Positions 17,211-30,359 of a DNA stretch of 64,000 nt are shown one piece after another. The notes below the pieces were generated by a model, which was given only the letters and a program-made list of their open reading frames with translations, was not told where the DNA came from and did no database searches. The DNA comes from Escherichia coli (GTDB lineage: Bacteria > Pseudomonadota > Gammaproteobacteria > Enterobacterales > Enterobacteriaceae), in NCBI RefSeq assembly GCF_009931435.1, contig NZ_CP043414.1. One strand, written 5' to 3'. Made by a program: the position numbers and the translations under genes. The first letter of the stretch is position 1. Every line of letters starts with the position of its first letter.

Positions 17211-17942
17211 TCAGGCTGTTACCAAAGAAGCCGCAACCTGGCGCTCATCAGAAATAATGTGCGTGACCTCATCCAGATGCCCGATGCGGGCTTCCCCTGA
17301 ACGATTAAATTTACTTTTATCAATCAATAACAACGATTGCGCGGCACGTTTTAATAGCATCGATTTGTAATCAGCGTTGATGGCATTGGAGTCCCACAGT
17401 GCACCGCTGCTATCGATCCCTTCACAAGAAAAAATAAACAGATCGATTTCCAGCGATTTAAGTTGGGAAATCAGCGAGGGATTGACGTAACAGCCATATT
17501 TGCGCTCAAGTGTGCCGCCGGAACTGATCAGTTGAATGCGTTCACGTTTACCGAGTTCATGGCAAATCGGATGGCTATTGGTGAAGACCTGAATGTCGAT
17601 GTCAGGCAACTGGCGTGCCAGATACCAGCAAGTTGAACTGGCGTCTAAGGCTATCACCATCCCTTCTTCAATCCACGCGAGCGCTTCGCGCGCGATATCT
17701 GCTTTATGCGCATAATGGCTTTTCAGCCGGATGTGAAAGGGATCGCCACTGTCTTGATTTTGACGGTGGATATATTTAGCGCGCCCATGATTGCGCAGAA
17801 TTTTACCCTGCGTCTGTAATTCATTGAGATCGCGACGAATGGTTTCTTTACTGACCTTTAGCTGTTCAGAGAGAGCTTCCGTGGTCAGGCTGGTATGGTT
17901 CAGCAGCAGGTCGACTATCGCTTGCTGGCGTGCCGCTTTCAT
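17211..17942 (-). CDS. fucR: DeoR-family L-fucose operon activator FucR
   Basis: MKAARQQAIVDLLLNHTSLTTEALSEQLKVSKETIRRDL; 243 aa. Confidence 0.9.
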   Translation of the reverse strand: MKAARQQAIVDLLLNHTSLTTEALSEQLKVSKETIRRDLNELQTQGKILRNHGRAKYIHRQNQDSGDPFHIRLKSHYAHKADIAREALAWIEEGMVIALDASSTCWYLARQLPDIDIQVFTNSHPICHELGKRERIQLISSGGTLERKYGCYVNPSLISQLKSLEIDLFIFSCEGIDSSGALWDSNAINADYKSMLLKRAAQSLLLIDKSKFNRSGEARIGHLDEVTHIISDERQVAASLVTA

Positions 17943-17999
17943 ATTTTTCACCCCATCATTCGATAACCGCCCGCGTCATGCGGGCGTACCGGTATGAGA

Positions 18000-18422
18000 T
18001 TACGGTGTTACCCCTTTTTTTAAAAGAATATTCCCGTACTTCGCTCGTTCGCCTGTGATAACGATCGCAAAGGCTTTTTGCGCCCGCTCATAAAACGCAA
18101 AACGATTGATGCGGATGATGTCAGGACAGGGGGCTTGTAGTGAAAGCGCATTACGATAACGTCGTTCTACTTCAGGATCGAGAGTGTCACCTTCTACCGC
18201 CGCCATCATCACCAGCGGCGGTGCATAACTGTCCAGTTCAAATAACGGGATAATCGCCTGGAGTAAGTCGCTCACCAACAGGCCATCAGCACGGATCACC
18301 TGCGGTCCCATCGAATGGGCGGGAAAGTGAGCATCGGAAAAAATAATTTCATCTCCATGTCCCATCTCTGCCAGCACTTTCAATAGTTCGGGAGAAATTA
18401 ACGGCGAAATTGTTTTCAGCAT
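18000..18422 (-). CDS. fucU: L-fucose mutarotase FucU
   Basis: 140 aa RbsD/FucU family; synteny. Confidence 0.9.
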
Positions 18423-18423
18423 T

Positions 18424-19842
18424 TCACACTTCCTCTATAAATTCAGGTTCAGTTTGTGGGTAGAAATAACGGTACTGATAATGAATCTGCGCGCGAGCTT
18501 CTTCCGGGCTGTTAAATTCCCCTACGCCATACCAACCGAACAGCGCAGCTCCTGCGACGGTCGTTTCGGCGTCGTCGAGAACTTTTACCGGAATATCAAG
18601 CATATTGGCTTTAATCTGATTCCACAATGTGTTGCGACTTCCTCCACCTACTAACAATAATTCAGAGGCTTTAAAGTGCCCGATTTTTTCCAGCATCTGT
18701 AGATTGCGCTGTAATTGCGCGGTTAACCCTTCCAGCGCCGCGCGATAGAAATGTCCGCGCGTGGTATTGAGCGTCACTCCTTGCCAGCCAGCGTTCTGAC
18801 ACGACAATAAATCACACTGCATTTTCACGCCATCCGCGCCAGGCGCGATCAGACGAGCCTCTTCAATCAACATTTGCCAGGGCGTTTCAGTAGTCCAGAA
18901 CAGTTTTCTCACCCATTCCAGCACGCCGGATGCCAGCCATTGCATACCGGGGTTATACAATCCTGCCTGGCTATCCAGTTCGCAGGTGGAACCGGCGTAC
19001 TGACTTAGCAGTGAAGTATCAACCTGCGTACTGCGGACCATTAAAATTTCCCAGGTACCGGAAGAGAGCACGGGTTCATTTTGTTCGGCACCAGCACCAA
19101 AAAGGGCGAACTGGGTATCATGACCTGCAGAAATTACCGGTATGCCAACGGGTAAGCCGAGCATTGCTGCGGCGCTGTTCTGTAGCGTACCAATCTGTTC
19201 ACCCGCTTCCACCAGACGAGGGAAGAGTCGGCGTGGAATACCGGTGGCTTGTAAAATTTGCGGACTGAAATCGCGTTGCTGGATATCCAGCATCTGGCTG
19301 GTTCCGGCCATCGTGATATCAGTAGTGAATTCGCCGGTTAAACGGTGGTTAATCAGCGACGAAATAAAGAGCCAGGCGTGCGCGCGTTCCAGCAGTTGTG
19401 GATGATTTTCTTTCAACCACACCAATTTATATAACGTATTGAAACTAAAGGCTCCGACGCCAGAAATAGCCTGCAACTGCTGTGCGGAGATCAACCGTTC
19501 AATATTGTCCATTACCGCTGCTGTTCGCGGACATTTCCAGCTAATGATCGGATAGAGCAAATCGCCTTGCTTATCTACCAGAGCGCCATCCACACCAAAG
19601 GTGGTGACGGCGATACCGCGGATGTGGCATTCAGTCAGTTCACTATTGATTTGCCGACAGCAATCAGCAAAGCGTTGCAAAATGGCGTCTAAAGACCACT
19701 GGTGCCAGGTGTTGTTTTCCATCGCGATATCGCTGGCATTAGGCGTTGAGGCGCGGGCAACAATTTTTCCCTGCCGATTAACCGCGATGGCCCTGACATT
19801 GGTTGCGCCACAGTCGAGTACCAGGATAACTTCTTGTTTCAT
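18424..19842 (-). CDS. fucK: L-fuculokinase FucK (FGGY family)
   Basis: [22 protein letters not shown]-terminus; FGGY signature. Confidence 0.9.
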
Positions 19843-19950
19843 AATCGCTCCTGCAATATAGCCGGATAACATTGTTTATCCGGCTAACCACTCTTGCTTG
19901 TTCAGGCCCGGTAGCCGGAGCGACCGGGCATCACATCAGGGAGTAATGTA

Positions 19951-21726
19951 TTAACGCTTGTACAACGGACCGTAGTTCTGGCAAGCGCGGTAATCCAGGC
20001 CTTCAATATCCATGCCGTGCGCAGCCCAGGCAGAAGGACGATACACTTTGGTCTCTTCAACGTTGTGCATACATACCGGGATACGCAGCATGGAGGCGAG
20101 AGTGATAAAGTCTGCGCCAACGTGGCCGATGGTCAGAACCCCATGGTTAGCGCCCCAGTTCGCCATTACCGAGTACACATCCGTAAACGGCCCTTTACCG
20201 GTGAGGCGCGGTGCAAACCAGGTGGTTGGCCAGGTTGAGTTGGTGCGTTTGTTGAGGATGTCATGCACATCCTTCGGTAACTCAACGCTCCAGCCTTCCG
20301 CGATTTGCAGTACCGGTCCCAGGCCTTTGATGATGTTGACACGGGTCATGGTGAACGGGACACCGCCTTCAGTAAGGAAGCGGGAAGAGTAACCACCGCC
20401 ACGGAAATATTCGTGGATAGCCGGGCACCATTCGGTCGCGGCGAGGCAAGCGTCAGCCTCTTGCTGAGAGATTTCCCAGTGCGGCTTCATCGTCGGTTTA
20501 CCTTCGCTGTCGCGTTGTTTACAGGATCCGTCCAGCGCAGCAGAACCGGAGTTGATCAAGTGGATGATGCCGTGTTCTGCCAGTCCGTCCAGTTTATGCC
20601 CCGTTACTCGCTCAATTGCTTCTGGTGACCAGTAGGTACGCACATCGGCAAATACCTGAGCGGTACCGGTGAGCTGGTGGCCCATTAGCATTGCCACGCC
20701 GTTAAGACTGTCGTTTTCGGTCGCCACGACGAAGGGTTCACGCACGCCATTCCAGTCAAATGAACTGTTAAGGATCGCTTCGGCGGTGTCGCCATTGGGA
20801 TATTGATCGGTCCAGTGACGTTGTCCCTGGAAGCCCGCAGCGATGGCGTTGTAGCCAAGTGATTCTTCCACGCGACCAATATCGGCCAGTTTGCTGTTGC
20901 CTTGCATCATGTCGCGGATACACATCGCCATCAGTAAACTTTCGCGTAGAACTGCGCGGCTTTGCTCGGCATTGCGTTGATACTGTTTGTTATTTTCATC
21001 TTCGCCATAGCGGAAGTTTTTATCAGCCCAGGCCAGCGCCATTTCCAGTTCTGCTTCGTCGTAAATCTTCTGATCAATACGGCGACGCAGTTCGGTCATA
21101 TCCACCGCCTGGACTTTCATTCCCAGCCAGGATTCAAAGAAGTTGTGGTCAACGATGGAACCGGCGATCCCCATCGAAACGCCGCCCAGCGACAGATAGC
21201 TTTTACCTTTCATACTGGCGACTGCCAAACCGGCGCGGGCAAAGCGCAGCAGTTTTTCTTCAACGTCGGCAGGAATCGATGTGTCATCGGCATCCTGAAC
21301 GTCATGACCGTAAATGGAGAATGCCGGGATGCCTTTCTGGCTGTGAGCTGCCAGAGCCGCTGCCAGGTAAACAGCGCCGGGACGTTCAGTGCCGTTAAAG
21401 CCCCAAATGGCTTTCGGGCGGGTAGGGTCCATGTCAATGGTTTCACTGCCATAGCACCAGCAAGGCGTTACCGTAATGGTGAGGCCTACATTCTGGCTGC
21501 TGAATTTTTCTTCGCAAGCAGCAGCTTCAGCCATACCCGCGATACAGGTATCGGAAATGACACACTCGACGGCAGCTCCGCAGGCATGGCGCAGTTTCTC
21601 GGTCAGCAGTGCGGCCGTAGCTTTCGCCATATTCATTGTTTGTTCTTCAAGCGACTCACGAACACCCATGCGACGACCGTCAATAACCGGGCGGATACCA
21701 ATTTTCGGTAACGTATTAATTTTCAT
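19951..21726 (-). CDS. fucI: L-fucose isomerase FucI
   Basis: 591 aa; [19 protein letters not shown]-type N-terminus. Confidence 0.9.
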
Positions 21727-21808
21727 CAGGATTCCTCATCTCGCTTTATTGGCGCTCTGCTAAGGCGGAGAAAGGAAACCACCGAAGCAGTAGTATTGGT
21801 CATTATTT

Positions 21809-21824
21809 GCTAACTCGAGTTAGC
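21809..21824. promoter_or_regulatory. 16-bp perfect palindrome GCTAACTCGAGTTAGC (copy 1), candidate operator
   Basis: Exact self-complementary 16-mer with central CG, in fucI/ABC-operon divergent intergenic region. Confidence 0.35.
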
Positions 21825-21868
21825 TTAGGTTTGTAGGCTTTTTATGCACAACTTTTTTGTTGTTGAAA

Positions 21869-21884
21869 TGTGAGGGGCTTCACG
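21869..21884. promoter_or_regulatory. CRP-like site TGTGAGGGGCTTCACG
   Basis: 9/10 match to TGTGA-N6-TCACA half-sites. Confidence 0.3.
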
Positions 21885-22047
21885 AGAAGTGGTTAAAATA
21901 CGATCTCTGTCAAATTATTATTTAGCGGGATAAAAATAAATTTTACGTATAATCAAATGGTTATTAGATTTTAATGGTTATGCATCACAGTTTTAACTCA
22001 AATGATTTGGCTAATTTGTATACCTAAAATAGCTTTAAAAGGCGATC

Positions 22048-22063
22048 GCTAACTCGAGTTAGC
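22048..22063. promoter_or_regulatory. 16-bp perfect palindrome GCTAACTCGAGTTAGC (copy 2), candidate operator
   Basis: Identical to copy 1, 239 bp away, ~130 bp upstream of ABC ATPase start. Confidence 0.35.
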
Positions 22064-22195
22064 AAAATGCGAAGAATAGATTGATACGATGAATATTTAT
22101 TCAAAGGTTATTCGTATCACAGTGGAGATGGCTTTAGTAGCGACGTTTATGCCGTACTTCACATTTTCAGTTTCTGATTATTGAGGAAAGCTGCA

Positions 22196-23695
22196 ATGTC
22201 CGAAACATTTTTGCAAATGAAGCATATCACCAAACGCTTTCCTGGAGTGTTGGCGCTTAATGACGTGCAATTTACCCTACGCCGGGGCGAGGTTCATGCA
22301 TTATTAGGTGAAAATGGTGCAGGAAAATCTACATTAATGAAAATTTTGTCGGGGGTTTATCAACCTGATGAAGGCGAAATAATTTTTGAAGATAAATTAG
22401 TCTCATTTTCTGATCCGTTAAGTGCGCAAAACGTAGGTATTACTATTATTCACCAGGAATTTAATTTATTTCCCGAGCTTACAGTAGAAGAAAATATTTT
22501 TATCGGCAGGGAGTTTTGTAAAAAAAATCGCTGGCGTCTGGATGAGAAACAGCAACGCAAGGCGACGATTGAAATTTTGCAAAAATTAAATTTGGCGATC
22601 AAACCAGATACTCTGGTTGCCGACCTTACGGTAGCTCAACAACAGATGGTAGAAATTGCCAAGGCCATTTCGGTTAACGCCAGGATTCTCATTATGGATG
22701 AACCTACTGCGGCGTTAACAGAAACTGAAATTGAAAGCTTATTTCGCGTCACCCGGTTATTGAAAGAACAGGGGACCGGCATTGTGTATATATCCCACCG
22801 TCTGGAAGAGTTGGCGCTAATTGCCGACCGCGCGACTGTAATGCGTGATGGTCAGTACATCAGCACAGTAGATTATGAGTGCGTAAAAATCAGCGATCTG
22901 ATTGCCATGATGGTTGGTCGCGATTTAGGGAATATCTATCCCCGCCGCGAGGCCATACAGCAGCGGATGCCGGTTCTGGAGGTCAACGGACTGACGCGCA
23001 AAGGCGTACTGAACGATATTAATTTTACGCTTTATCGTGGCGAGATCCTCGGCTTTGCCGGACTGATGGGGGCAGGTCGTACTGAACTTGCGCGTGCGAT
23101 TTTTGGTGCGGACTCCATTGACAGCGGAACGCTAAAGTTAAATGGTAAGGAAACCGTTATTAAAGATATTTCGGATGCTATTCAGCAGGGAATTAGTTAC
23201 CTGACGGAAGACCGAAAAAAAGAAGGGTTGGCACTGAATTTATCTGTTGAACGAAATATTATGTTAGGAAATTACCCTGAGTATTCCGATCGTTTTGGGA
23301 ATGTCGATTCGCGTCGTTGCCAACAAACCAGTGAGGAACAGGTAAAAGCGTTAAGGATTAAAACGCCAAATCTTGAACAGGCTGCATTAAATCTAAGTGG
23401 AGGAAATCAGCAGAAAATTATAATTGCACGTTGGGTGTGTAAAGATACTGATATTTTAATCTTCGATGAACCCACTCGCGGCATTGATGTTGGCGCCAAA
23501 CTGGAAATCTATGAGTTAATGAATCGCCTGGTGGCAAAAGGGAAATCAATCATCATGATCTCCTCTGAATTGCCGGAGGTGTTAGGAATGTGCGACCGTA
23601 TTTTAGTGATGCGCAGTGGTCGAATTACTGGCGAACTTAGCGCAAATGAAGCGACACAAGAAAAAATCATGCAATACGCGACGTTAGAGGATTAA
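22196..23695 (+). CDS. Sugar ABC transporter ATP-binding protein, tandem ABC domains (RbsA/MglA-like)
   Basis: Two Walker A (GENGAGKST; GLMGAGRTE) and two signature motifs (LSGGNQQK); ATG 22196 with GAGGA RBS. Confidence 0.85.
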   Translation: MSETFLQMKHITKRFPGVLALNDVQFTLRRGEVHALLGENGAGKSTLMKILSGVYQPDEGEIIFEDKLVSFSDPLSAQNVGITIIHQEFNLFPELTVEENIFIGREFCKKNRWRLDEKQQRKATIEILQKLNLAIKPDTLVADLTVAQQQMVEIAKAISVNARILIMDEPTAALTETEIESLFRVTRLLKEQGTGIVYISHRLEELALIADRATVMRDGQYISTVDYECVKISDLIAMMVGRDLGNIYPRREAIQQRMPVLEVNGLTRKGVLNDINFTLYRGEILGFAGLMGAGRTELARAIFGADSIDSGTLKLNGKETVIKDISDAIQQGISYLTEDRKKEGLALNLSVERNIMLGNYPEYSDRFGNVDSRRCQQTSEEQVKALRIKTPNLEQAALNLSGGNQQKIIIARWVCKDTDILIFDEPTRGIDVGAKLEIYELMNRLVAKGKSIIMISSELPEVLGMCDRILVMRSGRITGELSANEATQEKIMQYATLED

Positions 23696-23698
23696 ATT

Positions 23699-24682
23699 AT
23701 GACTATCTCTGTAACCTCTCCAGACAGCAATAATAAGAAAATAAAGATAAATAAAGAACTTTTGATGCGCCTTGCGCCTCTTTTTAGCTTAATTATATTA
23801 GTGCTGTTTTTTAGTTTCAGCTCTCCCTTTTTCTTTAATACCGAAAATATCATGACGATTGCTCTGCAAACGTCGGTTATCGGCATTATGGCCATTGGGG
23901 TAACTTTCGTCATTATTACCGCGGGCATCGATCTTTCATTGGGTTCCGTGGTGGCTTTTTCTGGTGTCGCCGTGGGGATTTGCGCCACACTGGGCCTGCC
24001 GCTGCCAGTGTGTATTATTGCCGGTGTTTTAGCCGGTGGAATGTGCGGCTATGTGAATGGTTTGTTGGTCACTAAAATGACTATTCCACCGTTTATCGCT
24101 ACCTTGGGCCTGATGATGTCCGTCAGAGGTATCAATATGGTGATGACCGACGGGCGCGCCATCTATTTTGCCGATTACCCGATGTTCAAAACGCTCGCTC
24201 AGGGACGCTTGTTTGATGTGCTGCCTTATCCTGTTTTCTACCTGGTCATTGTGGCGCTTGTCGGCGCTTACATCCTGAAGAAAACGGTTATTGGTCGCTA
24301 TGTCTATGCCGTAGGCAGTAATGAAGTTGCTGCTCATCTTTCTGGTATTAAAGTTCAGCGCGTGAAAATTTTCGTCTATGCCTTCTGTGGTTTATTAACC
24401 GGGATTGCGGGTGTCATTCTCGCTTCTCGTCTCAACTCCGGACAACCGACGGTGGGTGTGGGTTATGAGCTGGAAGCTATTGCTGCGGTAGTGATCGGCG
24501 GAACCAGCTTAATGGGCGGTATTGGCACTATTGGCGGCACAATCATTGGCGCTTTCATTATGAGTGTACTGAAAAATGGCCTCAATTTAATGGGGGTCTC
24601 TCAGTTCTGGCAAATGGTCGCGATGGGCGTAGTTGTGGTCGCTGCCGTTTACCTCGATACATTACGCAAAAAGATTCGTTGA
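23699..24682 (+). CDS. Sugar ABC transporter permease (RbsC/AraH family)
   Basis: ~10 TM segments, family layout. Confidence 0.85.
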   Translation: MTISVTSPDSNNKKIKINKELLMRLAPLFSLIILVLFFSFSSPFFFNTENIMTIALQTSVIGIMAIGVTFVIITAGIDLSLGSVVAFSGVAVGICATLGLPLPVCIIAGVLAGGMCGYVNGLLVTKMTIPPFIATLGLMMSVRGINMVMTDGRAIYFADYPMFKTLAQGRLFDVLPYPVFYLVIVALVGAYILKKTVIGRYVYAVGSNEVAAHLSGIKVQRVKIFVYAFCGLLTGIAGVILASRLNSGQPTVGVGYELEAIAAVVIGGTSLMGGIGTIGGTIIGAFIMSVLKNGLNLMGVSQFWQMVAMGVVVVAAVYLDTLRKKIR

Positions 24683-24755
24683 CTTAGGCTCCCTGTTTTA
24701 TCGGGAAACAACTGCCCTGACGTTAAGGGTGATTCACTCAGAACGGAGTACAACA

Positions 24756-25706
24756 ATGAAAACCAGGCATTTTATCTATGCGTTATCTCTGCTGGCTTGC
24801 GTAAGTTCCAGCGCACTGGCGAAGGATTTAAATCTTCCGGTTGTTAGTAAAGGTTTCCAACATGAATTCTGGCAAACCGTAAAAATGGGGACTGAAGCTG
24901 CGGCTAAAGAGTTGGGGGATAAAACCAGCTATGTTGGCCCGGCTGATGAAACGCAAATAGCCGAGCAAATTCAGTTAGTCGAAAATGCGATGGCGCAGAA
25001 ACCGAATGGCTTGCTTCTGGCAGCCCTCGACGCGAATGCGCTCGCCCCACTGGTAGAAACGGCAAATTCACGCGGTATCAAAGTGGTGACCTTTGATTCA
25101 GGCATCAATTCAGACATTCCGGTGAGTTTTGTCGCCACCAATAACCGTAAAGCAGGTGCTCAGGCAGCTGATGCCTTAGCTGCGCAGGTAAATAATAAAG
25201 GGAAAGTTGGGATTATCGCGCACGTTGCAGGAACATCTTCCGCTATTGAACGCTCGGAAGGCTTCATGGAGCGTATGAAAGAAAAATATCCTGACATTAA
25301 AGTCTTACCCGTTCAGTACAGCGATGGTGACCCGCAAAAAGCGATGGATAAAACTATCGATATGATTCAGGCCAATCCCGATCTTGCTGGGATCTATGGC
25401 ACCAATGAAGGTTCAACGCTCGGGGTGGCGAATGCCATTGATAGCCAGAATCTGAAAGGTAAGGTGAAGGTCATTGGTTTTGATAGTACGGAAGCGATTA
25501 TTAACTTCCTGAAGAACGGGGTCATTCAGGGCTTTGTTGTTCAGGATGCATACCAGATTGGCTATCAAGGGATCAAAACGTTGAACGCGGCCCTTTCGGG
25601 GCAAGCCGTTGAAAAAGAGATCGATATTCCCGTGAAATTTGTTAATGCCGAGAATATTAACACGCCAGAAATCGACAAACTCCTGCACCCATTCGGTAAG
25701 AAATAA
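24756..25706 (+). CDS. Periplasmic sugar-binding protein (RbsB-like, type I PBP) with signal peptide
   Basis: MKTRHFIYALSLLACVSSSALA signal peptide; GGAG RBS; ORF-track upstream extension overlaps permease and is rejected. Confidence 0.85.
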   Translation: MKTRHFIYALSLLACVSSSALAKDLNLPVVSKGFQHEFWQTVKMGTEAAAKELGDKTSYVGPADETQIAEQIQLVENAMAQKPNGLLLAALDANALAPLVETANSRGIKVVTFDSGINSDIPVSFVATNNRKAGAQAADALAAQVNNKGKVGIIAHVAGTSSAIERSEGFMERMKEKYPDIKVLPVQYSDGDPQKAMDKTIDMIQANPDLAGIYGTNEGSTLGVANAIDSQNLKGKVKVIGFDSTEAIINFLKNGVIQGFVVQDAYQIGYQGIKTLNAALSGQAVEKEIDIPVKFVNAENINTPEIDKLLHPFGKK

Positions 25707-25759
25707 AAAAATTGGGGATGAATTCTCATCCCCGTTATCTCCAGCGTCAGGGAGGCTTT

Positions 25760-27340
25760 ATGCACAACGGTTATTTTCTCGGTGTCGATGTCGGATCGGC
25801 CAGTGTCAGGGCAGGCGTTTACAGTGCCAGTGGCCACAGGCTGGCATTCGCTACTGCGCCCGTCTCCCAGTTTCGCCCTGGCGGCGAGCGTGTCGAACAG
25901 TCTTCGGCAGAGATCTGGCAACAAGTTTGTAAAACGGTGAAAGAGGCGACAGCTTTGGCAGGCATCCCCATTTCCGCAATTCGCTCACTGGGTTTTGACG
26001 CTACCTGCTCGCTGGTTGTTCTTGATGAACAAGGCCAGGGTTTAGCGGTTTCGTCCGGTGGATCTGCGAATCACGACATTATTATGTGGATGGATCATCG
26101 TGCAACTGTCGAGACGGCGCAGATTAACGCAACGAAGGATCCCGTATTGCGCTACGTTGGCGGCGAAGTGAGCGTCGAGATGGAGTTACCAAAGTTACGT
26201 TGGTTGAAGACGCATCTACCGCAAACCTGGCAGGCCGCTCATCGCTTTTTCGATCTGGCGGATTTTCTGGTCTGGAAAGCAACAGGGCGAGACGTCGCGG
26301 GATTGTGCACGCTAACGTGTAAATGGAATTATCTGGCTCATGAACAACGCTTTAGCCATAGCTTACTGGAATCGGTAGACCTGACCGACATGCTCGAAAG
26401 AATTCCCGCCGAAATTCTTCCGCCTGGTGCTGCCGTGGGAACTTTAACTGCCACAGCTGCTGAAGAATTAGGATTAACGACCAATGTTATCGTGGCCAGT
26501 GGTTTGATTGATGCCCATGCCGGTGGCATGGCGCTGGCTGGCGCGCAGCCATCAGGAACGCTGGCATTGATAAGCGGAACGTCGAATTGCCACATGTTGT
26601 GCAGTGAAAAAGAAATATTCACCCCTGGCGTCTGGGGGCCATACTGGTCGGCCATGTTGCCAAATTACTGGCTAACTGAAGGCGGGCAAAGCGCCGCAGG
26701 GGCGCTGGTGGAGTGGACGCTTCAGGAGTCCGGGGCAAGCGCAAATCTTTTTAACAAGGCGCAGCAACGCGGGTGTCATCCGATTCAACTGATTAATGAA
26801 TGGGTAGCCGCCCTGGAAGCTAACGAGTCAGAACCCACACGAAATTTACATGTGCTTGCCGATCATCACGGCAACCGTTCGCCACGAGCGCGGCCCGATG
26901 CCAGAGGCAGTGTTTATGGCTTAACACTGGAGCGTGGTGAAAATCAGCTCGCGCGGCTTTATCTTGCGACTTTACAGGCAATAGCCTTTGGCACCAGACA
27001 TATTATTGAAACTCTGCGGGAAAATGGGCATACCATTACCCGATTAACATTATGTGGTGGTGCAACGCACAACCCTTTATGGCTACGCGAATATGCAGAC
27101 GTGACAGGTTGCGATATCCACCTGATGCAAGAAGAAGATGCCGTTACGTTGGGCGCAGCAATTAGCGGCGCTGTTGCCAGCGGAGCATGGGGGGATTTTA
27201 CATCTGCGTGTAAAGCAATGGTTGAAGCCGGAGAGGTTATTCAGGTAAATCCACAACGCCGTGAATTTTTAGAGCGTAAATACCGGGTTTACCTGACGCT
27301 TTGGGAGCAACAACAGGCGGTTAACCAACTGATGCAATAA
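25760..27340 (+). CDS. FGGY-family carbohydrate (pentulose-type) kinase
   Basis: GVDVGSASVRAGV N-terminal FGGY motif; ~526 aa; GGAGG RBS. Confidence 0.8.
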   Translation: MHNGYFLGVDVGSASVRAGVYSASGHRLAFATAPVSQFRPGGERVEQSSAEIWQQVCKTVKEATALAGIPISAIRSLGFDATCSLVVLDEQGQGLAVSSGGSANHDIIMWMDHRATVETAQINATKDPVLRYVGGEVSVEMELPKLRWLKTHLPQTWQAAHRFFDLADFLVWKATGRDVAGLCTLTCKWNYLAHEQRFSHSLLESVDLTDMLERIPAEILPPGAAVGTLTATAAEELGLTTNVIVASGLIDAHAGGMALAGAQPSGTLALISGTSNCHMLCSEKEIFTPGVWGPYWSAMLPNYWLTEGGQSAAGALVEWTLQESGASANLFNKAQQRGCHPIQLINEWVAALEANESEPTRNLHVLADHHGNRSPRARPDARGSVYGLTLERGENQLARLYLATLQAIAFGTRHIIETLRENGHTITRLTLCGGATHNPLWLREYADVTGCDIHLMQEEDAVTLGAAISGAVASGAWGDFTSACKAMVEAGEVIQVNPQRREFLERKYRVYLTLWEQQQAVNQLMQ

Positions 27341-27404: not shown

Positions 27405-28403
27405 ATGGCTAAAACAGTAGAGCAGATAGCCAGCGACCTGAATTTATCGGTTACGACCGTGCGACTGGTGCTAAATGGAAAAGCGGAACAATATCGAATC
27501 AGCGTCAAAACCCAAACGCGTATCAATGAATATGTTGAACGCTATGGTTATATCATTAATCATTCCGCTCGCAGCCTTAAGCTTAACAAAACTGATACAT
27601 TAGGGTTGATTGTTCCCAACATATCCAACGTCTTTTTTGCTACGCTGGCAGAAAAACTCGAACAACGCTGTCGACGTTCCGGATATCAACTTACAATCAG
27701 TTGCACTTATGATGATGTTGACTATGAAAATAAATTGACGAAAGCATTTATCGCACGAAATGTAGATGGTCTTTTTATTGTTCCTTCGACGCTGGAAAAT
27801 CAGCAGCATCATTTACGCAAAATTCGTAAGCCAATGGTTTTACTCGATCGTGATTTTAAATATACCGATAACGCATTGGTAGAGAGTAATAATATTTCTG
27901 GCGGAGAAAAGCTGACGCAAAATATTCTTGAGGCCGGGCAGGCTCCAGTATGGTTTTTGCTGGGAGATGCCGGTTTGCCGAGTATCAGCGATCGTCTGAC
28001 AGGTTATTTGAATGCGTTGGCAAAAAAAGGGATTACCCATCGCGATTGGGTGCGGGAAGGTCCGGTAAATACTCCGGAAGGCGGCTATGTCATTATGGAA
28101 AAACTCATTGAAGAGCAGGGATGTCCGCAGGCATTTATCGCCTCGTCTTTACCTGTGCTTGAAGGCGCTGTCCGCGCGATTCGCGACCGTCTTGGCGCTG
28201 TACCGCCAGAAATCAATATTGGCACTTTCGATGAACATCCTATGCTGGGATTTCTCGCCAACAATGTCTGGTCAATGCAGCAGGATGAAAATGCCTGGGC
28301 AGAAAAAGCGTTCGAAATGATGTTAAGCGCGATCGAAGAAAGACCAGTAAAAAAAACAGTTAAAGTAGAAATGAAATTAATTAAGCGCATAAGAAAAAAA
28401 TAA
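27405..28403 (+). CDS. LacI-family transcriptional regulator
   Basis: N-terminal HTH (TVEQIASDLNLSVTTVRLVLNG) plus periplasmic-binding-like effector domain. Confidence 0.85.
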   Translation: MAKTVEQIASDLNLSVTTVRLVLNGKAEQYRISVKTQTRINEYVERYGYIINHSARSLKLNKTDTLGLIVPNISNVFFATLAEKLEQRCRRSGYQLTISCTYDDVDYENKLTKAFIARNVDGLFIVPSTLENQQHHLRKIRKPMVLLDRDFKYTDNALVESNNISGGEKLTQNILEAGQAPVWFLLGDAGLPSISDRLTGYLNALAKKGITHRDWVREGPVNTPEGGYVIMEKLIEEQGCPQAFIASSLPVLEGAVRAIRDRLGAVPPEINIGTFDEHPMLGFLANNVWSMQQDENAWAEKAFEMMLSAIEERPVKKTVKVEMKLIKRIRKK

Positions 28404-28535
28404 TAATCGCCAAAAGATATCAGGCTACTGAACAATGATATTCAGTGGCCTCCCCTTACTAAAAATAACCCCGTCTTCATTTGCGGTGCTGTTTTACGCA
28501 ACAAGGCGAGCTGAAACTGTATCTGGAGAATAGAA

Positions 28536-29183
28536 ATGGAAAGAACACGTTTATCCCGTGAAATAATTGAAACCTGTCTGGAAATGACGCGCCTTGGGTT
28601 AAATCAGGGGACAGCGGGGAATGTCAGCACACGTTTTGAAAACGGCATGTTGATTACTCCCAGCGGTATTCCTTATGAAAGAATGACGGAGAATATGATT
28701 GTCTATGTTGATGGCAACGGCAAATACGAAGAAGGTAAGATTCCTTCCAGCGAATGGCGTTTCCATATGGCGGCCTATCAAAGCAGACCGGATGCCAACG
28801 CGGTTGTTCACAATCATGCCGTTCATTGCACGGCAGTTTCCATTCTTAACCGACCGATCCCTGCTATTCACTACATGATTGCGGCGGCTGGCGGTAATTC
28901 TATTCCTTGCGCGCCTTATGCGACCTTTGGAACTCGGGAACTTTCTGAACATGTTGCGCTGGCTCTCAAAAATCGTAAGGCAACTTTGTTACAACATCAT
29001 GGGCTTATCGCTTGTGAGGTGAATCTGGAGAAAGCGTTATGGCTGGCGCATGAAGTTGAAGTGCTGGCGCAACTTTACCTGACGACCCTGGCGATTACGG
29101 ACCCGGTGCCAGTGCTGAGCGATGAAGAGATTGCCGTAGTGCTGGAGAAATTCAAAACCTACGGGTTACGGATTGAAGAGTAA
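28536..29183 (+). CDS. fucA: L-fuculose-1-phosphate aldolase
   Basis: Near-complete match to FucA from memory (..GTAGNVS..HNHAVHCTAVSILNR..); 215 aa. Confidence 0.9.
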   Translation: MERTRLSREIIETCLEMTRLGLNQGTAGNVSTRFENGMLITPSGIPYERMTENMIVYVDGNGKYEEGKIPSSEWRFHMAAYQSRPDANAVVHNHAVHCTAVSILNRPIPAIHYMIAAAGGNSIPCAPYATFGTRELSEHVALALKNRKATLLQHHGLIACEVNLEKALWLAHEVEVLAQLYLTTLAITDPVPVLSDEEIAVVLEKFKTYGLRIEE

Positions 29184-29207
29184 TTTCGTAAAGCAACAAG
29201 GAGAAGG

Positions 29208-30359
29208 ATGATGGCTAACAGAATGATTCTGAACGAAACGGCATGGTTTGGTCGGGGGGCTGTTGGAGCTTTAACCGATGAGGTGAAACGCCGTGGTTAT
29301 CAGAAGGCACTGATCGTCACCGATAAAACGCTGGTGCAATGCGGCGTGGTGGCGAAAGTGACCGATAAGATGGATGCTGCAGGGCTGGCATGGGCGATTT
29401 ACGATGGTGTAGTGCCCAACCCGACAATTACTGTCGTCAAAGAAGGGCTTGGTGTATTCCAGAGTAGCGGTGCGGATTACCTGATCGCTATTGGTGGTGG
29501 TTCTCCACAGGACACGTGTAAAGCGATTGGCATCATCAGCAACAACCCGGAATTCGCCGATGTGCGCAGTCTGGAAGGGCTTTCCCCGACCAATAAACCC
29601 AGTGTACCGATTCTGGCAATCCCCACCACAGCAGGCACTGCGGCAGAAGTGACCATTAACTATGTGATCACTGACGAAGAAAAACGACGCAAGTTCGTTT
29701 GTGTTGATCCGCATGATATCCCGCAGGTGGCATTTATTGACGCTGACATGATGGATGGTATGCCGCCTGCGCTGAAAGCCGCGACGGGTGTCGATGCGCT
29801 CACTCATGCTATTGAGGGGTATATTACCCGTGGCGCGTGGGCGCTAACCGATGCACTGCACATTAAAGCGATTGAAATCATTGCTGGGGCGCTGCGAGGA
29901 TCGGTTGCTGGTGATAAGGATGCCGGAGAAGAAATGGCGCTCGGGCAGTATGTTGCGGGTATGGGCTTCTCGAATGTTGGGTTAGGGTTGGTGCATGGTA
30001 TGGCGCATCCACTGGGCGCGTTTTATAACACGCCACACGGTGTTGCGAACGCCATCCTGTTACCGCATGTCATGCGCTATAACGCTGACTTTACCGGTGA
30101 GAAGTACCGCGATATCGCGCGCGTTATGGGCGTGAAAGTGGAAGGTATGAGCCTGGAAGAGGCGCGTAATGCCGCTGTTGAAGCGGTATTTGCTCTCAAC
30201 CGTGATGTCGGTATTCCGCCACATTTGCGTGATGTTGGTGTACGCAAGGAAGACATTCCGGCACTGGCGCAGGCGGCTCTGGACGATGTTTGTACCGGTG
30301 GCAACCCGCGTGAAGCAACGCTTGAGGATATTGTAGCGCTTTACCATACCGCCTGGTAA
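29208..30359 (+). CDS. fucO: L-1,2-propanediol oxidoreductase (lactaldehyde reductase)
   Basis: Fe-ADH family; MANRMILNETAWFGRGAVGAL N-terminus. Confidence 0.9.
   Translation: MMANRMILNETAWFGRGAVGALTDEVKRRGYQKALIVTDKTLVQCGVVAKVTDKMDAAGLAWAIYDGVVPNPTITVVKEGLGVFQSSGADYLIAIGGGSPQDTCKAIGIISNNPEFADVRSLEGLSPTNKPSVPILAIPTTAGTAAEVTINYVITDEEKRRKFVCVDPHDIPQVAFIDADMMDGMPPALKAATGVDALTHAIEGYITRGAWALTDALHIKAIEIIAGALRGSVAGDKDAGEEMALGQYVAGMGFSNVGLGLVHGMAHPLGAFYNTPHGVANAILLPHVMRYNADFTGEKYRDIARVMGVKVEGMSLEEARNAAVEAVFALNRDVGIPPHLRDVGVRKEDIPALAQAALDDVCTGGNPREATLEDIVALYHTAW

Follow-up and report, generated by a model that had tools for sequence, protein, structure and literature searches.

Two identical palindromes between fucI and an ABC-transporter operon as candidate operators of a local LacI-family regulator in B-type Escherichia coli

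We analyzed a 64,000-nucleotide stretch of Escherichia coli DNA (NCBI RefSeq assembly GCF_009931435.1, contig NZ_CP043414.1; hereafter the window) that carries a fucose gene cluster, in which fucI and an ATP-binding cassette (ABC) transporter operon are transcribed away from each other. Between them lie two identical 16-bp perfect palindromes, GCTAACTCGAGTTAGC, which we call O1 and O2. Based on comparative sequence analysis, O1 and O2 are very probably the operators of a LacI/Cra-like repressor encoded in the same locus. We assigned them to the local regulator because the motif follows the regulator gene across different gene contexts. A first-pass annotation of the window had listed two exact palindrome copies 239 bp apart at 21809-21824 and 22048-22063, within an intergenic region at 21727-22195 between fucI and the ABC operon, and a LacI-family gene at 27405-28403; exact searching confirmed the copies, and the coordinates of the region and the gene were correct. 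Its further proposal, that the palindromes are operators of the adjacent regulator, is now strongly supported by comparative genomics.

Form and position of the palindromes

O1 and O2 are separated by 239 bp, measured start to start. Both are even palindromes in which the half-sites GCTAACTC and GAGTTAGC meet at a central CG, and together with three flanking bases the two copies make up a 19-nt inverted repeat (TTT.../...AAA); the flanks of sites are A/T-biased in general. They are the sole matches to GCTAACTCGAGTTAGC in the window at up to three mismatches, where 0.14 would be expected and where two were reached in 1 of 100 shuffles. Scored with a 20-bp weight matrix derived from the sites of other species, O1 and O2 reached 32.8 and 31.1 bits, respectively, compared to 5.2 bits for the next best position in the window.

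These properties are those of LacI/GalR operators. In a survey of the LacI family, even palindromes were found for 1,251 of 1,303 regulators and a central CG for 1,173, most sites preceded the start codon by 30-140 bp and autoregulation held for three quarters of local regulators (PMC4052901), which bears out the first-pass remark that even palindromes with a central CG are typical of this family. The centers of O1 and O2 precede the start codons of fucI and the ABC ATPase gene by 90 and 140 bp, respectively, within the typical -140 to -30 range.

Motif and regulator travel together across genomes

We collected relatives of the regulator from a scan of one genome per species, obtaining 63 loci (52-97% identity, 1.23 Mb in total). 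These loci contained 46 exact copies of GCTAACTCGAGTTAGC, 90 at up to one mismatch and 112 at up to two, compared to chance expectations of 0.0003, 0.014 and 0.31, respectively, and to zero to three in 20 shuffles. The central CG was invariant in all 112 related sites. The motif thus co-occurs with the regulator gene, and it is conserved over a diverged background: in a footprint alignment of the fucI-ABC intergenic region from 22 species, the majority base had a frequency of 0.92-0.95 in O1 and O2 versus 0.5-0.65 in neighboring DNA. Within E. coli, variation of the intergenic region is low (at least 98.5% identity), which is too little to inform.

Paired sites between fucI and the ABC operon, 238-240 bp apart, were found in 28 genomes from genera that include Escherichia, Citrobacter, Pluralibacter, Phytobacter, Lelliottia, Enterobacter, Huaxiibacter, Pseudenterobacter, Atlantibacter, Buttiauxella and Serratia. 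O2 is kept at up to two mismatches in 26 of these and is degenerate in two Atlantibacter-type genomes. Elsewhere the gene context changes and the site stays with the regulon: it lies between fucI and the regulator gene in Superficieibacter and between fucI and darK in Chimaeribacter. In distant relatives (52-59% identity; genera including Dickeya, Brenneria, Sodalis, Biostraticola and Klebsiella), sites precede darK-like kinase genes by 15-30 nt and the regulator gene by 55-75 nt.

Sites also stand ahead of an operon encoding a transporter and a DUF2961 protein in Lelliottia, Huaxiibacter, Superficieibacter and Chimaeribacter. DUF2961 corresponds to glycoside hydrolase family GH172, whose members include exo-alpha-D-arabinofuranosidases (PMC10115798, PMC8605356), and this suggests that in other genera the regulon also covers the use of D-arabinosides. 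The operator upstream of the GH172 and GPH-family transporter operon was located in six loci (L018 13778, L020 14555, L028 13931, L031 13931, L034 13910 and L062 13901), with an exact match in five and one mismatch in L020.

Two genomes carry two paralogous regulators each: Atlantibacter sp. RC6 (L022 and L056) and C. freundii M-21 (L030 and L059). The coexisting paralogues are ~73-75% and 53% identical to the E. coli regulator, and essentially the same operator motif accompanies both; they may cross-regulate. The sugar-acid-type operon of the 53% paralogue contains transporter, enolase-superfamily dehydratase, short-chain dehydrogenase and DapA-like genes. We tried to read it as an L-fuconate/D-arabinonate pathway; its dehydratase was closest to structures of an uncharacterized racemase and of talarate dehydratase.

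The regulator protein

We place the 332-amino-acid regulator, which we provisionally name DarR, in the Cra/ScrR branch of the LacI family. It has the architecture of LacI/GalR transcription factors, with a helix-turn-helix, a hinge helix with a leucine lever and a type I periplasmic-binding-protein core. Pfam placed the LacI helix-turn-helix at residues 6-51 (E=6.5e-4) and also matched Peripla_BP_1/3/4. The best solved structures were those of Cra (7x7h, 7doa and 8jff), and full-length alignments to Cra and PurR were obtained. Scores against NCBIfam models fell below the cut-offs, at 235 bits versus 390 for TIGR02417 (fruct_sucro_rep) and 217 versus 385 for NF008452 (Cra), and the operator shares 10 of 16 bases with the Cra consensus; the protein does not qualify as a Cra/FruR equivalog. 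This degree of operator likeness is consistent with a protein of the Cra branch with altered specificity.

When 16 orthologues and paralogues (56-91% identity) were aligned, neither the recognition helix (TTVRLVL) nor the hinge (NHxARSLK) varied, and we therefore expect the same operator specificity throughout the group. The ARSLK hinge is presumably equivalent to Leu54/Lys55 of PurR. The regulator's alignment to the PurR core reaches residue 328 of 332, which leaves no ~20-amino-acid tail and hence no LacI-type C-terminal tetramerization helix.

The locus and the K-12 fuc regulon

The locus is arranged as fucR-fucU-fucK-fucI on the minus strand, a 469-bp gap, and ABC ATPase, permease, substrate-binding protein, FGGY pentulose kinase, LacI-family regulator, fucA and fucO on the plus strand (RefSeq annotation and NCBIfam). 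Nucleotide homology to K-12 MG1655 extends up to position 21738 (97% identity), 12 nt upstream of fucI, and resumes at 28557 (95%), 21 nt inside fucA; the corresponding K-12 segment is L065 4690-6552. Between these breakpoints, a 6.8-kb cassette with the ABC transporter, darK and the LacI-family regulator takes the place of fucP and of the entire K-12 fucA-fucP control region for FucR and CRP. No homology to the K-12 fuc control region was found in the B-type intergenic region, where the only common words were trivial 9-mers. Because the K-12 control region is replaced, fucIKUR and fucAO must have other promoters in B-type E. coli. The 470-bp intergenic stretch is present as one chromosomal copy per genome in 381 of 5,426 complete E. 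coli genomes (~7%), including E. coli B, BL21, C and REL606-type strains.

The locus itself has been described before. The product of darK is a D-ribulokinase of the L-fucose/D-arabinose cluster of E. coli B (PMC12307932; PMC6150544), and PMC12307932 cites Elsinghorst and Mortlock 1994 for the insertion of darK between fucA and fucI in this strain. A 'variant 2' fuc operon has an ABC transporter instead of fucP (PMC10221146), and B strains grow on D-arabinose while K-12 does not (PMC3446290; PMC6150544). The window locus is this E. coli B L-fucose/D-arabinose cluster with darK, and it is also the 'variant 2' fuc operon. The regulator and its operators go unmentioned in these four sources.

The gap between the regulator gene and fucA (28404-28535, 132 bp) holds a stem, CGTCTT...AAGGCG, that is kept in Escherichia and Citrobacter, and no terminator-like site was found between the two genes; in Enterobacter, Lelliottia and Pseudenterobacter the gap is merely 26-28 nt. 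For these two reasons, the absence of a terminator-like site before fucA and the short gap in Enterobacter-type loci, the rightward transcription unit probably begins with the ABC ATPase gene, takes in the regulator gene and ends with fucO. No further operator was found upstream of fucA at up to three mismatches. A Cra-like half-site, GCTGAAAC, 11 nt upstream of the fucA start is specific to E. coli and not conserved.

Predicted promoters and a proposed switch

We predicted one promoter on each side of the intergenic region (Table 1). On the leftward side, fucI transcription would start near 21815, with O1 spanning about -9 to +7. The CRP core box TGTGAGGGGCTTCACG at 21869-21884 agrees with the core consensus at 9 of 10 bases and does not vary among the 22 aligned species; its center lies 60 bp from that of O1, or at -61.5 from the fucI start, a position that rests on the predicted start. 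On the rightward side, transcription of the ABC operon would start near 22042, placing O2 at about +7 to +22. A possible second CRP box on this side is uncertain as a CRP site, and its TCACAaTTT is conserved in all aligned species; the two CRP-like centers are 105 bp apart. The segment 22000-22009 has a mean majority frequency of 0.91.

Table 1 Features of the fuc locus in the window, with predicted regulatory elements
Feature	Position	Strand	Details
O1, perfect 16-bp palindrome GCTAACTCGAGTTAGC	21809-21824		exact match; 82 nt from fucI start codon
O2, palindrome identical to O1 (GCTAACTCGAGTTAGC)	22048-22063		exact match; 132 nt upstream of ABC ATPase start codon
Intergenic region fucI / ABC ATPase	21727-22195		469 bp; annotation
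Predicted fucI -10, TAAGCT (TATGCT in other genera)	21822-21827	-	overlaps 3 nt of O1; -12T, -11A and -7T invariant
Predicted fucI -35, TTGTGC	21846-21851	-	18-nt spacer; plus-strand ACAA(C/T) block conserved
CRP-type box AAATGTGAGGGGCTTCACGAGA, core TGTGA-N6-TCACG	21866-21887, center 21876.5		half-sites invariant in 22 aligned species
Possible second CRP half-site box	21974-21989		conserved TCACA 21985-21989, left half poor; about -60.5 from predicted ABC-operon start
Predicted ABC-operon -35, TTGGCT	22007-22012	+	inside conserved palindrome CAAATGATTTG
Predicted ABC-operon -10, TAGCTT	22030-22035	+	17-nt spacer; block ATAG-CTTTAAA with mean majority frequency 0.91
LacI-family (Cra/ScrR-like) regulator gene, proposed binder of O1 and O2	27405-28403	+	NCBIfam, Pfam and structure matches
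fucI	19951-21726	-	annotation and NCBIfam
ABC ATPase gene	22196-23695	+	annotation and NCBIfam
Proposed regulated leftward operon fucI-fucK-fucU-fucR	17211-21726	-	97% identical to K-12 up to 21738
Proposed regulated operon, part 1: ABC ATPase, permease, substrate-binding protein, FGGY pentulose kinase (darK)	22196-27340	+	annotation and NCBIfam; DarK from literature
fucA-fucO	28536-30359	+	presumed read-through from ABC-darK-regulator operon

Both operators would occupy classic repressor positions. In the switch that we propose, the region holds two divergent promoters, probably CRP-assisted. A dimer on O1 would cover the -10 element and the start of the leftward fucIKUR promoter, and a dimer on O2 would lie immediately beyond the start of the rightward ABC-darK-regulator(-fucAO) promoter. 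RNA polymerase would thus be stopped by one site at each promoter, and the regulator would be autorepressed. We infer negative control, that is, repression rather than activation, because the control elements are LacI-type palindromes. The repressor would be released by a sugar with the stereochemistry of L-fucose/D-arabinose, or by a ketose or ketose phosphate formed from such a sugar, for example D-ribulose; we propose an effector of this configuration, or a ketose derived from it, because of the content of the regulon (FucI, DarK and GH172). FucI also isomerizes D-arabinose. Elsinghorst and Mortlock, in work from 1988 and 1994, are said to have found that in E. coli B the fucose enzymes and D-ribulokinase are induced coordinately by L-fucose as well as by D-arabinose, and a single repressor acting on both promoters would account for such coordinate induction.

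Several points weigh against this proposal. We found no binding, expression or transcription-start data for the locus in the searchable literature. The fucR gene is intact (17211-17942), and a second regulator may therefore act on the region. The predicted promoter hexamers are weak and were missed by a consensus scan, and the Pfam match to the LacI helix-turn-helix is weak as well. Finally, where paralogues share the motif (L022/L056 and L030/L059), the binder of a given site is ambiguous in those species.

Spacing and looping

A refinement of the proposal is that O1 and O2 work as a pair, with one complex, either a tetramer or partner-bridged dimers, looping out the 223-bp CRP-containing segment and silencing both promoters cooperatively. 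We hold this refinement tentatively, as possible rather than expected. The O1-O2 distance is 238-240 bp in the 22 aligned genomes, with a standard deviation of 0.7 compared to 10.5 for the distance from O1 to fucI and 39 for that from O2 to the ABC gene, and the central ~90 bp are poorly conserved in sequence yet almost free of insertions and deletions. When we scanned metagenomes for paired 16-mers at any distance from 224 to 254 bp, all 27 bacterial contigs had the pair at 239 or 240 bp. Spacings in other contexts (219, 365, 373 and 375-376 bp) are near-integral at 10.4 bp per turn, the distance of 105 bp between the two CRP-type boxes also speaks for a loop, and a FruK-bridged loop has been proposed for the closest relative, Cra (PMC11157272).

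Against this, the regulator, aligned to PurR as described above, has no tetramerization helix of the LacI type, and the functional unit of Cra is a homodimer (PMC11157272). The helical-phasing test was weak (p ~0.07 with the helical repeat left free, 0.01 if fixed at 10.4-10.6), neither the metagenome scan nor the genomes examined gave a variant one helical turn longer or shorter, and many relatives carry single sites only. The fixed spacing could also come from two tightly packed promoters. Repressor-mediated looping, as suggested earlier, is possible but less likely than not: the spacing is indeed fixed, but the protein leaves no room for a LacI-type tetramerization helix and its relative Cra is dimeric.

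A bolder extension would put the fucose/D-arabinose genes of B-type E. coli (including BL21) and of many Enterobacteriaceae under the LacI-like repressor as master switch, in place of FucR. The repressor would act through a loop of dimers bridged by a kinase or another partner, with O1 and O2 239 ± 1 bp apart and two CRP boxes between them. By analogy with the proposed Cra-FruK bridge, the bridging protein could be the co-encoded kinase. If true, such a switch would account for the natural induction by D-arabinose that occurs in E. coli B and not in K-12, although as a whole we judge this extension unlikely.

Other readings of the palindromes

It is very improbable that O1 and O2 are bound instead by another protein, either the global regulator Cra or FucR, the DeoR-type activator encoded at the end of the fucIKUR operon. 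In favor of such a binder, the site has 10 of 16 bases in common with the symmetrized Cra consensus GCTGAAACGTTTCAGC (PMC11157272), and fucR is intact in the window. However, the motif follows the local regulator gene and not fucR. The loci of Pluralibacter, Phytobacter, Pseudenterobacter and Atlantibacter keep both sites and have room for fucR, yet none was detectable beside their fuc genes; FucR, which the first-pass annotation had offered as a possible binder, is for this reason an unlikely one. In K-12, the fucA-fucP region (L065 4879-5015) contains five repeats of the type ATGACCG/CGGTCAT, ~30 bp apart, which would be the FucR sites of that strain. These repeats are unlike O1 and O2, and none was found in the B-type intergenic regions 21727-22195 and 28404-28535; O1 and O2 thus show neither dependence on fucR nor likeness to the putative K-12 sites. 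As for Cra, the half-site TAACTC differs from the Cra half-site TGAAAC at three specificity positions, and Cra is present in all of these genomes while the motif was seen only beside the local regulator. Together, the fucR-less loci, the unlike K-12 repeats and the half-site differences disfavor both proteins, leaving the local regulator as the preferred binder.

There is hardly any chance that the palindromes are hairpins of a terminator, an attenuator or an mRNA-stabilizing stem-loop. O1 was flagged by a consensus scan as a weak terminator-like stem of six pairs, and O2, which would fall within the predicted 5' untranslated region, folds into a small hairpin in the centroid structure. Nevertheless, only 48 of the 112 related sites are perfect palindromes, and the sole variable pair, 6/11, differs from the consensus in 63 of 112 sites, where it is broken in 61 and compensatory in 2. 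Because variation in the half-sites is non-compensatory, selection seems to act on two independently read half-sites, as in a protein site and not a stem. No plus-strand gene reads into O1, Rfam gave no match and the fold of the predicted 5' untranslated region was no better than shuffles (z = -1.08). An RNA element was rejected because of the non-compensatory variation, the missing Rfam match and the insignificant fold.

Equally negligible is the idea that O1 and O2 are remnants of a mobile or dispersed repeat, such as terminal inverted repeats around an inserted AT-rich segment: the 19-nt inverted repeat does surround an AT-rich stretch and the whole cassette differs from K-12, but the window contains no further copies, every copy in the 1.23 Mb of related loci adjoins regulon genes, the bracketed segment holds conserved promoter-like and CRP-type elements and is syntenic across genera, and the sole unrelated occurrences are on two non-bacterial-looking contigs. 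Dispersed repeats and mobile-element ends were rejected on the lack of further copies in the window and the regulon setting of all copies in the 1.23 Mb. The two contigs, both metagenomic (L077 5839-6087 and L083 631-878), carry the same 16-mer twice, extended to palindromes of 20-22 bp and 232-233 bp apart; they have almost no long open reading frames, are probably eukaryotic and are unrelated to the regulator.

Comparison with known systems

The closest characterized protein is Cra (FruR), which shares the GKAxQYRxSxKT helix-turn-helix region with the regulator. The operators of the two proteins are also related, as both are 16-bp even palindromes of the form GCT...CG...AGC (PMC11157272), and in function the arrangement resembles the Cra-fruBKA system. 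The recognition helix, however, is TTVRLVL here and TTASYVI in Cra, and the half-site is TAACTC here and TGAAAC there. Cra is a global regulator that binds fructose-1-phosphate, whereas the regulator described here is local and lies inside its own operon.

In its predicted geometry, the region resembles the lac control region, with class I CRP at -61.5, a -35 that is weak, and an operator that coincides with the start or follows it closely; a second operator a few hundred base pairs away is a further likeness. Unlike in lac, the two sites are identical and each would serve its own divergent promoter, and the protein is without the LacI tetramerization helix.

The K-12 fuc regulon is controlled by the activator FucR together with CRP at divergent fucAO and fucPIKUR promoters. 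The B-type locus occupies the same chromosomal site, has fucI, fucK, fucU, fucR, fucA and fucO at 95-97% nucleotide identity and likewise has divergent promoters with (here predicted) CRP input, but it lacks the K-12 control region, fucP and the ATGACCG repeats. In the literature that could be searched, work on the E. coli B darK cluster covers the kinase and the ABC transporter variant and not the regulator or the operators.

Knowledge of the locus and its kinase goes back to 1994; what is new is the proposed assignment of an operator to the regulator. No description of either was found in the searchable literature, the sources being incomplete, and the accessible part of a RegPrecise-based LacI-family supplement contained no Enterobacteriales fucose regulog and no matching protein sequence. 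Conceptually the arrangement is ordinary, a standard LacI-family switch. It would nonetheless mean that the fuc locus of E. coli B and BL21, which are laboratory and industrial workhorses, is wired unlike the textbook K-12 regulon, with LacI-type operators and a local repressor replacing the FucR/CRP region. Natural inducibility by D-arabinose has long been known in E. coli B, and the operator assignment offers a testable mechanism for it. It also predicts a small regulon comprising the fucI, darK and ABC transporter operons and, in other genera, GH172 D-arabinofuranosidase operons, and the compact operator/repressor pair could serve as an orthogonal sugar-inducible expression switch.

Minor elements of the intergenic region

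Three further elements were observed between fucI and the ABC ATPase gene. The palindrome CAAATGATTTG at 22000-22010 (ACCAAATAATTTGGT in Citrobacter) is conserved, also in genomes without fucR, and could be bound by another factor. Only in Escherichia did we see an imperfect 17-nt inverted repeat, TGATACGATGAATATTT / AAAGGTTATTCGTATCA, at 22082-22119, where the 5' untranslated region of the ABC operon is predicted. In Pluralibacter (and RIT691), a third box, GATAACTCGTTTCAGC, lies mid-region (L015 6166-6181 and L017 4484-4499, equivalent to ~21913-21928 in the window), 104 bp from O1 and 135 bp from O2, and its reverse complement begins with the Cra-type half-site GCTGAAAC. Enterobacter carries GCTGAATCGTAATACC at the same position, and the E. 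coli element is degenerate.

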